From the IMG/VR virus record IMGVR_UViG_2660238548_000022: 8,402 bases of DNA; one strand, written 5' to 3'. This DNA comes from a virus (taxonomy: Duplodnaviria > Heunggongvirae > Uroviricota > Caudoviricetes). The number at the start of each line of letters is the position of its first letter. Position 1 is the stretch's first letter. A program made the position numbers. Of the stretch, positions 3,001 through 6,000 are shown one piece after another.

Positions 3001-6000
3001 GGGGTGCGTCATGCTTAAAACCTTCCGCGTTTTTTCCCGTGCTGTTAACAAGCGCGGCTATACCGTTGGCATCACGCAGAACGTGAAGGCCGTTAATATG
3101 CAAGCGGCGATTGATTCAGTAATCAGTAATTCCGGTAAAGCAGGTTTATCACATGTAATTATTGCAGCAGTACATGAATTAAAAGGGGGGGCATTAATGA
3201 AGGAAATTACATTACACGAAGCCGCTGAACGTGCGCACCAGACAGAAATTATTTGCCGACTTCTTGAGGTGTACCCTAATAAATTAAATGATGGTGATAT
3301 ATCCGCATTAGCTGGCCTTCTGGCAAAACTTTCTGGAAGTGTTGCGCTGTGGTTAATTGATGAGAGATTTAAACGCTATGAACAATAACAAACGCGTAAT
3401 TTGCGAATTGAATGAACTCACACAAAGCGCAATATCTTACAACAATGCCGTAAGTGAGATTATTAACGTCTGGTTTGAATCGCTGACAAATTGCGAGCGT
3501 GACGAGTCAACGACAAGATTAACCTTTGCCATTTCTGAATTACTGAATATTTCCACCAGCAAAATAGAGAGCATATCAGAGAAGATTAACGGCTTATCAG
3601 GTCACGCTATCGGAGAATAAAAATAATGAAACTTAAATATTCTGGCTTAACTGCCAGCGGCAAAACTCGCACTAAATTCATGTGCGGGGATATTTACCGC
3701 GATAAGTACGGCGGCACGGTAATGATTAAGGGCGTGGAGGAACGGCGCGTAACTTACCGCCGTGAAGGCTACGAATATGATTGCGTTATGCCTGTTTATC
3801 AGTTCAACCGTGATTTTTCTCTGGTACAGGCAGCGCCCCGCAGTAAGCCAACCAGCAGGGAGAAAGCACGCGCCAATATTCAGGAAATAAAAAAGATGCT
3901 TAACGTATTCAGGGGTAAAAAATGAAACTGGCACCGAACGTAAAAAAACAGCCACGCGGAATAAAACACAAAGACACAGAGGTGATTATTTTCGCGGGTA
4001 GTGATGCGTGGGCACATGCAAAACAGTGGCAGGAGCAGGACGGCCCCGCATCCGGCGATAATGTGCCTCCTGTGTGGCTTGGGCCAAATCAGCTTGCCGA
4101 ACTTTATGCACTGCAAATTGTTCCTGATGGAAAAAAACGCGTAAGGCTGTACCAGGCAGGAGAACTGGACTTGGTGGAGACCAAAAAGATTGGTCAGAAG
4201 CTGGCGGCGGCAGGCGTACAGGATGCAAAATTTTACCCCGAAGGAATGCACGGTCAGAAGTGTGAAAACTGGCGGCGCTATCTGAATGCTGAGCGTGAAA
4301 ATATTGCCGCAGGGCTTACCATGCCGGAGCAGAAAAATACGCAACTGGCACAAATGGCAGACAGTGAGCGCGCCCAGCTGCTTGCCGATCGCTTTGATGG
4401 CGTTTGCGTACATCCTGAAAGTGAAATCGTTCACGTATGGCGCGGCGGGGTATGGTGTCCGGTCAGCACAATGGAACTTAGCCGCGAAATGGTGGCGATC
4501 TATTCAGAGCACAGGGCCACTTTCAGCAAGCGCGTAATCAATAACGCCGTGGAAGCGTTAAAAGTTATTGCCGAACCAATGGGCGAGCCGTCCTGCGATT
4601 TGCTGCCGTTCGCCAATGGTGCGCTTGACCTGAAAACGGGGGAATTTTCCCCGCACACGCCGGAGAACTGGATCACCACGCACAACGGCATTGAGTACAC
4701 GCCACCAGCACCTGGGGAGAACATTCGCGACAACGCGCCAAACTTTCACAAATGGCTTGATCACGCAGCCGGAAAAGACCCGCGCAAGATGATGCGTATA
4801 TGTGCCGCGCTGTACATGATTATGGCGAACCGGTACGACTGGCAGATGTTTATTGAGGCCACCGGAGACGGCGGTAGCGGTAAAAGTACATTCACGCACA
4901 TAGCCAGCCTTCTGGCAGGGAAACAGAACACGGTAAGCGCTGAAATGACATCGCTTGATGATGCTGGTGGACGTGCGCAGGTTGTCGGGAGTCGTCTTAT
5001 CGTCCTGGCTGACCAACCGAAATATACAGGCGAAGGAACGGGCATCAAGAAAATCACGGGCGGCGACCCCGTCGAAATTAACCCGAAATATGAGAAGCGA
5101 TTCACGACGGTAATAAGGGCGGTGGTACTGGCGACCAACAACAACCCGATGATATTCACCGAGCGGGCCGGAGGTGTGTCACGTCGTCGGGTTATTTTCC
5201 GGTTCGACAACATTGTAAGGGAGGACGAAAAAGACAAGGATTTGCCGGAGAAGGTCGCGGCTGAAATCCCCGTAATTATACGCCGCTTGCTGGCTAATTT
5301 TGCCGACCCTGAAAAGGCACGGGCTTTACTCCTGGAACAGCGCGATGGTGATGAAGCACTGGCGATAAAGCAACAGACAGATCCGGTTATTGAGTTTTGC
5401 CAGTTCCTGAATTTTCTGGAGGAAGCACGCGGCCTGATGATGGGTGGCGGTGGCGATTCCGTGAAGTACACGACCAGAAACAGCCTTTACCGCGTCTATC
5501 TGGCGTTTATGGCATACGCAGGAAGAAGCAAGCCGCTAAACGTGGCTGAGTTCAGCAAGGCCATGAAGCCAGCGGCAAAAGTTTACGGACATGAATATAT
5601 TACGCGGAGAGTTAAGGGAGTAACGCAGACCAACGCAATTACAACTGATGATTGCGACGCGTTTTTATAATTTTAGACAAAAGCCATCTACCTCTTCTAC
5701 CTAAAGAAAATAAATATACATTATTCAATATGATAAGTGGGTAGAGGGGCAGGTAGAAGGCAAATAAAAGCCCTCTACACCCTCCACCATGATTAAGGTC
5801 GTTTGTGAGGGGCGGGTAGAGGATGGGTAGAGGGCCACGAAAGCCCTCTACCCATCTGAAAGCCGCGCCATTACTGACCTGAAAGATGATTGGGTAGAGA
5901 GGTAGAGGAGGTGCACCACAACCTAAAACTTTTTAAACACGAGGGTAAAAATAAAAATGCACACATCAGGAAAATTGAACAATCAGAAGAAACCACATAA

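Follow-up and report, generated by a model that had tools for sequence, protein, structure and literature searches.

Organization of the island and of the array downstream of rep

The DNA analysed here is a stretch of 8,402 bases (the window; all positions are window coordinates) from the IMG/VR virus record IMGVR_UViG_2660238548_000022, and its subject is an array of short repeats between the replication gene rep and the next gene, a candidate replication origin. The window is a Gram-negative phage-inducible chromosomal island (PICI), a phage satellite of Escherichia coli O157:H7. All genes were located on the + strand, in the order int, alpA, an Icd-like open reading frame (ORF), a DUF4222 gene, rep, the array, an 83-aa ORF, and genes for a small terminase and an HK97-like capsid protein (Table 1). 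An E. coli O157:H7 copy, 99.8% identical over a 401-bp query around the array, was found between cspD/yljB and clpS, and Table S1 of Fillol-Salom et al. (2018; PMC6092414) includes cspD-clpS among the PICI sites. The term satellite, given to this DNA in the first-pass annotation, was in accordance with the insertion between cspD/yljB and clpS and with the presence of int, alpA, a P4-alpha-like rep, terS, and a capsid gene.

The heptamer GGTAGAG occurred in six exact copies in the whole window, all of them inside 5740-5907, against an expected number of 0.39; this count was reached in none of 200 shuffles. When up to one mismatch was allowed, 11 sites were found in 5686-5907 and 18 across the remaining 8.2 kb, and these 11 sites (hereafter slots 1 to 11) compare with 0.50 expected in 228 bp (Poisson P of about 8e-12). 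The hexamer core GGTAGA was exact in nine of the 11 slots. In 18.4 kb covering the island and its flanks, nine of the ten GGTAGA hexamers were located in the array and the tenth in clpA, with none elsewhere in the island. The iteron consensus of the subtype present in the window was RGGTAGAKGG, corresponding to about 10 bp. Of the earlier description, which spoke of about nine GGTAGAG-type iterons in both orientations around an AT-rich segment, the orientations and the segment were recovered, but the number of slots is 11, nine being the number of exact cores.

With its first iteron at 5686, the array starts 16 nt beyond the rep stop codon (5668-5670). The slots follow the orientation order (-,-) AT-rich (+,+) (-,-) (+,+) (-) (+,+), and the paired slots are spaced 8-12 bp apart, approximately one helical turn. 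The AT-rich spacer (5702-5737) lies between slots 2 and 3 and is flanked by the divergent pairs 1-2 (-) and 3-4 (+). Of all 8372 30-bp duplexes in the window, none was less stable than the one beginning at 5702 (rank 1), and the spacer was present at the same position in all relatives compared. A motif scan detected no DnaA box, IHF site, or GATC in the origin region, and comparison of the region with Rfam gave chance-level matches below threshold only, with no RNA family. In addition, a weak terminator-like hairpin with a T-run (5634-5666) covers the 3' end of rep including the stop codon, with no promoter-like site after it; its position is like that of the P4 t-alpha terminator, which separates alpha from crr.

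Table 1. Coordinates of genes and sequence features in the window (a dot marks features with no strand).
Feature	Position	Strand	Description
Tyrosine integrase	1-1224	+	
AlpA regulator	2086-2310	+	
DUF4222 gene	3626-3925	+	Pfam DUF4222, E 1.5e-24; stop overlapping rep start codon
Rep, presumed initiator-helicase	3922-5670	+	582 aa; Pfam D5_N, DUF5906, Pox_D5
Presumed origin-binding winged-helix part of rep	5377-5643	+	Residues 486-574; 1KA8 match
Slots 1 and 2	5686-5701	-	GGTAGAT, GGTAGAA; left arm beside AT-rich spacer
AT-rich spacer, candidate DNA-unwinding element	5702-5737	.	86% A+T
Slots 3 and 4	5740-5758	+	GGTAGAG, GGTAGAA; right arm beside AT-rich spacer, pointing away from slots 1-2
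Slots 5 and 6	5773-5788	-	TGTAGAG, GGTGGAG; degenerate
Slots 7 and 8	5815-5832	+	GGTAGAG twice, 11 bp apart
Inverted repeat	5822-5856	.	7-nt spacer; convergent slots 8 and 9 plus flanks
Slot 9	5846-5852	-	GGTAGAG
Conserved non-iteron block CTGAAAGCCGCGCCATTACTG	5856-5877	.	Column conservation
Slots 10 and 11	5893-5907	+	GGTAGAG twice, 8 bp apart
First gene past the candidate origin	5957-6208	+	83 aa, PHROG 1231; right boundary of intergenic candidate origin
Small terminase	6711-7316	+	0.8 kb past array

Domain structure of Rep

Rep consists of an N-terminal domain (residues 1-140), D5_N (151-281), an SF3 helicase/DUF5906 domain (about 300-470), and a C-terminal origin-binding domain. Residues 141-571 shared 41% identity with residues 326-756 of P4 alpha. 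Further, residues 192-437 matched the helicase of SaPI5 PriRep5 (7OLA, E 3.6e-14), and residues 486-574 matched the origin-binding winged helix of P4 alpha (1KA8, E 5.5e-6). According to the alignment with 1KA8 and the topology of winged helices, the presumed recognition helix would span residues 541-555 approximately (nt 5542-5586). The best 120 Rep homologues were all at least 97% identical.

No counterpart of the P4 alpha primase region (residues 1-320) was identified in Rep, the first 140-160 residues of which matched no Pfam family even at E <= 10, and no primase was recognisable in Rep or in the other ORFs scanned in the window. PHROG profiles named 'DNA primase' aligned to Rep via C-terminal parts only, except for the profile of its own family, phrog_864. 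The earlier placement of an origin directly downstream of a primase-helicase thus holds for the position, 16 nt past the stop codon, and for the SF3 helicase, but not for the primase, which was an annotation name with no detected domain behind it. Because no primase domain was detectable in Rep, host priming or an unrecognised domain must be involved.

Among the E. coli relatives, the N-terminal domain of Rep occurred in three types (approximately 100%, 68%, and 39% identity), while the rest of the protein was 96-99% identical. This domain (window 3922-4341) is therefore a swapped module standing in place of the primase region of P4 alpha; it may act as a primase that was not recognised as such, or it may link Rep to the primase of the host. 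The Rep of a Serratia island carried the same N-terminal domain type as the E. coli PICI Rep.

Relationship to the tested origin of EcCICFT073

EcCICFT073 (NC_004431, 1377749-1389210) is a related island whose replication module has been examined by experiment. When its rep and putative ori were cloned in the temperature-sensitive vector pKO3-blue, colonies were obtained at 44 degrees C, whereas a rep mutant gave no colonies and an ori deletion gave significantly fewer (PMC6092414). Rep of EcCICFT073 was 98% identical to that of the window in D5_N, 96% in the helicase, and 96% in the C-terminal part, but only 70% in the N-terminal domain. The intergenic region downstream of rep was 62% identical overall, with all 11 GGTAGA slots in the same orientations, and the two islands shared the gene order DUF4222, rep, origin, small ORF, as well as the AT-rich spacer after slots 1-2. 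They differed in the iteron flank, which was GGTAGA-KGG in the window and GGTAGA-YAG in EcCICFT073, in slot 4, in place of which EcCICFT073 had a site of the opposite orientation roughly 10 bp beyond, and in Rep residues 542/545 (A/S in the window, N/G in EcCICFT073). Insertion site and packaging were also different: cspD-clpS with terS in the window, ycfD-phoQ with a cos-type system in EcCICFT073.

The window array is an ortholog of this experimentally tested origin, because its 11 slots and its Rep are homologous to a rep-ori module of EcCICFT073 that replicates a plasmid. The slot-for-slot homology to the tested origin, together with the homology of the Rep C-terminus to 1KA8, supported the interpretation as an origin made in the first-pass annotation, and 5686-5907 is very probably the vegetative replication origin of this Gram-negative PICI.

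The intergenic position of the array, just 5' of the next gene (5957), would also suit operators for the downstream packaging genes or for rep itself in place of an origin, since iteron-binding initiators often regulate transcription too; the weak terminator-like hairpin at the end of rep points in the same direction. However, a promoter scan of 5500-6100 revealed no sigma-70-like promoter on either strand, the orthologous region of EcCICFT073 acts as an origin, and 11 sites distributed over 220 bp with an AT-rich centre resemble an origin rather than an operator, which leaves a reading as operators decidedly improbable. A secondary regulatory role may exist besides the origin function.

Conservation of the array among relatives

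The 401-bp array region matched 259 of 5426 complete E. coli genomes. All matches were chromosomal, the median genome having one such place, and each match that was inspected was located 3' of a rep gene of the same family. The single difference between the window and the closest genome copy over the 401 bp was found in slot 1 (5686-5692), which reads GGTAGAT in the window and GGTAGAG in that copy (L001, 9087-9093). Ten fetched loci of E. coli, a Shigella locus, and EcCICFT073 all had the order DUF4222, rep, array, small ORF. With 80 further IMG/VR loci, a set of 88 Rep/origin pairs with 65 distinct origins was obtained, and in 57 of the 65 the 260 nt after the rep stop codon contained 10-11 exact GGTAGA cores. 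In 12 diverged origins, the 11 slots held their position and orientation while the intervening DNA drifted, with 73% of core columns invariant compared with 25% of other columns. The 65 distinct related origins under comparison thus had the published architecture of the EcCICFT073 type (11 slots, GGTAGA core) in common.

A chance cluster or a generic repetitive element, for which nothing but the shortness of the motif speaks, has a practically negligible probability in view of the Poisson and shuffling results given above, of the conservation of slots and orientations in the 65 distinct origins, and of the genome matches, which were found at one chromosomal place in the median genome and, where inspected, always behind the same rep family. 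The repeats might instead form a pac site bound by the small terminase of the island, the gene of which is encoded only 0.8 kb downstream; small terminases bind repeated sites. This is highly unlikely, given that the same 11-slot array was present in relatives with no annotated terminase gene in the fetched regions, including EcCICFT073, and that EcCICFT073 carries cos sites. Because the array was kept in such relatives, it travels with rep and not with terS.

Inverted repeat and conserved block within the array

The arms 5822-5835 (GATGGGTAGAGGGC) and 5843-5856 (GCCCTCTACCCATC) were perfectly complementary over 14 bp, just as the first-pass annotation had stated, and formed the centre of a larger inverted repeat of 27 nt with 78% complementarity. 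Folded as single-stranded DNA, 5809-5869 gave -23.6 kcal/mol (z -6.4), whereas the equivalent segments gave -8.2 in EcCICFT073, -9.3 in L009, and -17.1 in L013. The 14-bp palindrome was considered as a separate hairpin or cruciform signal and was rejected on account of the values for the tested EcCICFT073 origin and for L009. Because the equivalent segments of these two fold far more weakly, the extended palindrome is not conserved; the conserved part is the convergent iteron pair of slots 8 and 9, not the extended hairpin.

Between slots 9 and 10, the block CTGAAAGCCGCGCCATTACTG (5856-5877) showed column conservation of 85-97% or more across the 65 distinct origins, matching that of the iteron cores, and it was also found in EcCICFT073. 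Among the motifs tested, the block contained no iteron, DnaA, IHF, or GATC motif and no promoter-like match.

Comparison with P4, SaPI, and plasmid origins

P4 and the window share an alpha-type initiator with a C-terminal origin-binding winged helix, as well as short iterons in both orientations, often in pairs 9-11 bp apart. In contrast, the P4 type I iteron is TGTTCACC and that of the window GGTAGA, the origin-binding domains are only 31% identical, and the primase region of P4 alpha lacks a counterpart in the window Rep.

For SaPI origins, the model places 6-12 short iterons immediately behind rep, together with an AT-rich region that has two or more opposite-facing iterons on either side, and the initiator is a self-loading SF3-type helicase with a C-terminal winged helix (PMC9371898). 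This layout was found in the window, where the 11 slots are directly 3' of rep and divergent pairs surround the spacer. The likeness of SaPI Rep/PriRep to the window Rep was confined to the helicase core, with no similarity detected outside it. SaPIs also differ in their Gram-positive host and in their primase, which is separate or fused to Rep, whereas none was recognisable in the window. In the SaPI type, Rep also binds the iterons through its C-terminal winged helix without ATP and melts the origin; the window Rep may behave likewise, with indirect support from the match of iteron type to origin-binding domain and from the linkage-confounded association of residues 542/545 with iteron subtype described below. 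By analogy, the window origin probably works like a SaPI-type origin and would be of that type by function, not by homologous DNA.

Plasmid iteron origins of the pSC101, R6K, RK2, and P1 class resemble the window in that initiator sites stand beside an AT-rich unwinding region. Their iterons are, however, direct repeats of 17-22 bp, usually accompanied by DnaA boxes, and are bound by a non-helicase initiator of the RepA type (RepA/pi/TrfA). Sites of about 10 bp in both orientations, no DnaA box, and an SF3 helicase initiator place the window array outside this class. As an origin, the array is of an already known, experimentally characterised kind, one that functions in the manner of SaPI origins and has the P4 replicon as a relative.

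Several points weigh against the assignment as origin. One comes from P4, the closest characterised Rep system, which has two cis elements located 4.5 kb apart, ori and crr, and in which the cluster directly 3' of alpha is crr (4291-4590; alpha, 4636-6969, minus strand) while the start site is ori (9086-9809). Since the window Rep is a homologue of P4 alpha, the array could accordingly be a crr-like auxiliary cis element, bound by Rep and stimulating replication that initiates elsewhere. The window has a single cluster, however, and no second GGTAGA cluster was present in the island or its flanks; rep and the downstream region of EcCICFT073 maintain a plasmid; and the array has its own AT-rich spacer, the least stable duplex of the window. 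A crr-like role is consequently improbable.

The remaining points concern the window copy and the data behind the comparison. Slots 5 and 6 (5773-5779 and 5782-5788) are degenerate in the window (TGTAGA, GGTGGA) but exact in relatives. The AT-rich spacer is off-centre, unlike in the SaPI model, with two iterons on the rep side and nine on the far side. The exact extent of the EcCICFT073 ori deletion could not be recovered from the text or supplements of PMC6092414. The single-sequence AlphaFold model of Rep had a pLDDT of 37.6 and was unusable, so that the recognition helix was placed from the alignment only. Finally, we infer all of Rep binding, melting, and the replication start site on the window sequence. 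The homology to the tested EcCICFT073 origin nevertheless makes 5686-5907 very probably the place at which replication of this PICI begins.

Iteron type and the origin-binding domain

A scan of genome contigs with Rep gave three loci only, which were used for the comparison with distant iterons. Iteron clusters of the TGTTCA type were found directly 3' of rep in a Serratia island, a Morganella island, P4, and the phage vB_KppS-Ant. In the Serratia locus (L003, 5802-6015), the Morganella locus (L004, 5377-5647), and the induced element vB_KppS-Ant (L016, 4753-5352), the clusters contained 9-11 such iterons each. The origin-binding domains of Serratia, Morganella, P4, and vB_KppS-Ant shared 44-51% mutual identity, whereas that of the E. 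coli PICI was 31-34% identical to any of them. The helicase core, in contrast, was 59-62% identical between the E. coli PICI and Serratia/Morganella and 45-46% between Serratia/Morganella and P4. Because the PICI helicase is close to those of Serratia and Morganella while its binding domain and iterons differ from theirs, iteron type tracks the origin-binding domain and not the helicase. The E. coli PICI lineage has moved from P4-like TGTTCA to GGTAGA iterons, along with a strongly diverged origin-binding domain.

Two iteron subtypes were distinguished within E. coli: RGGTAGAKGG, as in the window, with Rep residues Ala542/Ser545, and RGGTAGAYAG, as in EcCICFT073, with Asn542/Gly545. This pairing held in 87 of the 88 Rep/origin pairs, the sole recombinant being L055, with an Ala/Ser Rep and a YAG-type origin. 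Residues 542 and 545, located at the start of the presumed recognition helix, were the strongest of the 582 Rep columns for predicting the subtype (accuracy 0.989; 0.98 among 58 distinct haplotypes), followed by residue 543 (0.90) and then by a value of 0.76. The N-terminal domain was also considered as the part of Rep that sets the iteron subtype and was rejected, since its three types do not follow the origin type.

At the DNA level, the association with the subtype rose from 0.5-0.7 to 0.93-0.98 at nt 5544, and several synonymous sites from there to the origin reached 0.88-0.95. The result was a sharp haplotype block, 5544-5910, made up of the last approximately 125 nt of rep and the iteron array; codons 542 and 545 are about 130 bp from the origin. 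Since nearby synonymous sites co-segregate almost as well, the association of 542/545 with the subtype was not taken to prove co-evolution. A single ancestral exchange of a cassette comprising the end of rep plus the origin would explain the pattern equally well as co-adaptation. Tentatively, a minimal switch may divide this one Rep family into two groups of origin specificity (incompatibility), a possibility that we regard as doubtful.

Neighbouring genes

The DUF4222 gene was immediately 5' of rep in all E. coli relatives examined. In the 83-aa ORF that follows the origin, the ribosome-binding region AACTTTTTAAAC..GAGGG..TAAAAATAAA was conserved. All fetched E. coli relatives encoded a single-stranded-DNA-binding protein (SSB) right after this small ORF (L005-L014 and L017 compared), and a gene for a PerC-family regulator was present in three of ten fetched E. 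coli relatives and in EcCICFT073. The island in the window has neither an SSB nor a PerC gene; its segment 6209-6710 instead contained short ORFs, followed by the small-terminase gene and a short HK97-like capsid gene. Further upstream, between int and alpA, an ORF of 257 aa (1221-1994) with 27-35% G+C matched nothing in Pfam, NCBIfam, PHROGs, or PADLOC and resembles foreign cargo.

Proposed initiation of replication and its implications

From the comparisons above we infer iteron binding by the C-terminal domain of Rep, melting at the AT-rich spacer, hexamer loading, and the priming enzyme, in the following sequence. Induction of the island would lead to the production of Rep, a P4-alpha-like, self-loading SF3 helicase-initiator. 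Its C-terminal winged helix would recognise the iterons, whose pairs alternate in orientation and have their members about one helical turn from each other. In the 36-bp spacer between the divergent pairs 1-2 and 3-4, the duplex would melt and Rep hexamers would be loaded, and the remaining seven sites may raise local Rep occupancy or help to build a second hexamer. Since no primase domain is recognisable in Rep, the primers would probably come from the host primase.

The assignment fixes the probable origin of a PICI often found in O157:H7 and further Shiga-toxin-producing strains of E. coli, which is of little importance beyond annotation. Of possible use are the primase label of an initiator in which no primase domain was found, the two iteron subtypes, and the change of iteron in the E. 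coli PICI lineage. If the switch is functional, changing two Rep residues together with one or two bases in each iteron would be enough to reprogramme the initiator, and co-resident islands could replicate without cross-talk. Two iteron subtypes linked to two residues are an inexpensive candidate system in which to examine how initiators gain their specificity and how satellites become incompatible.

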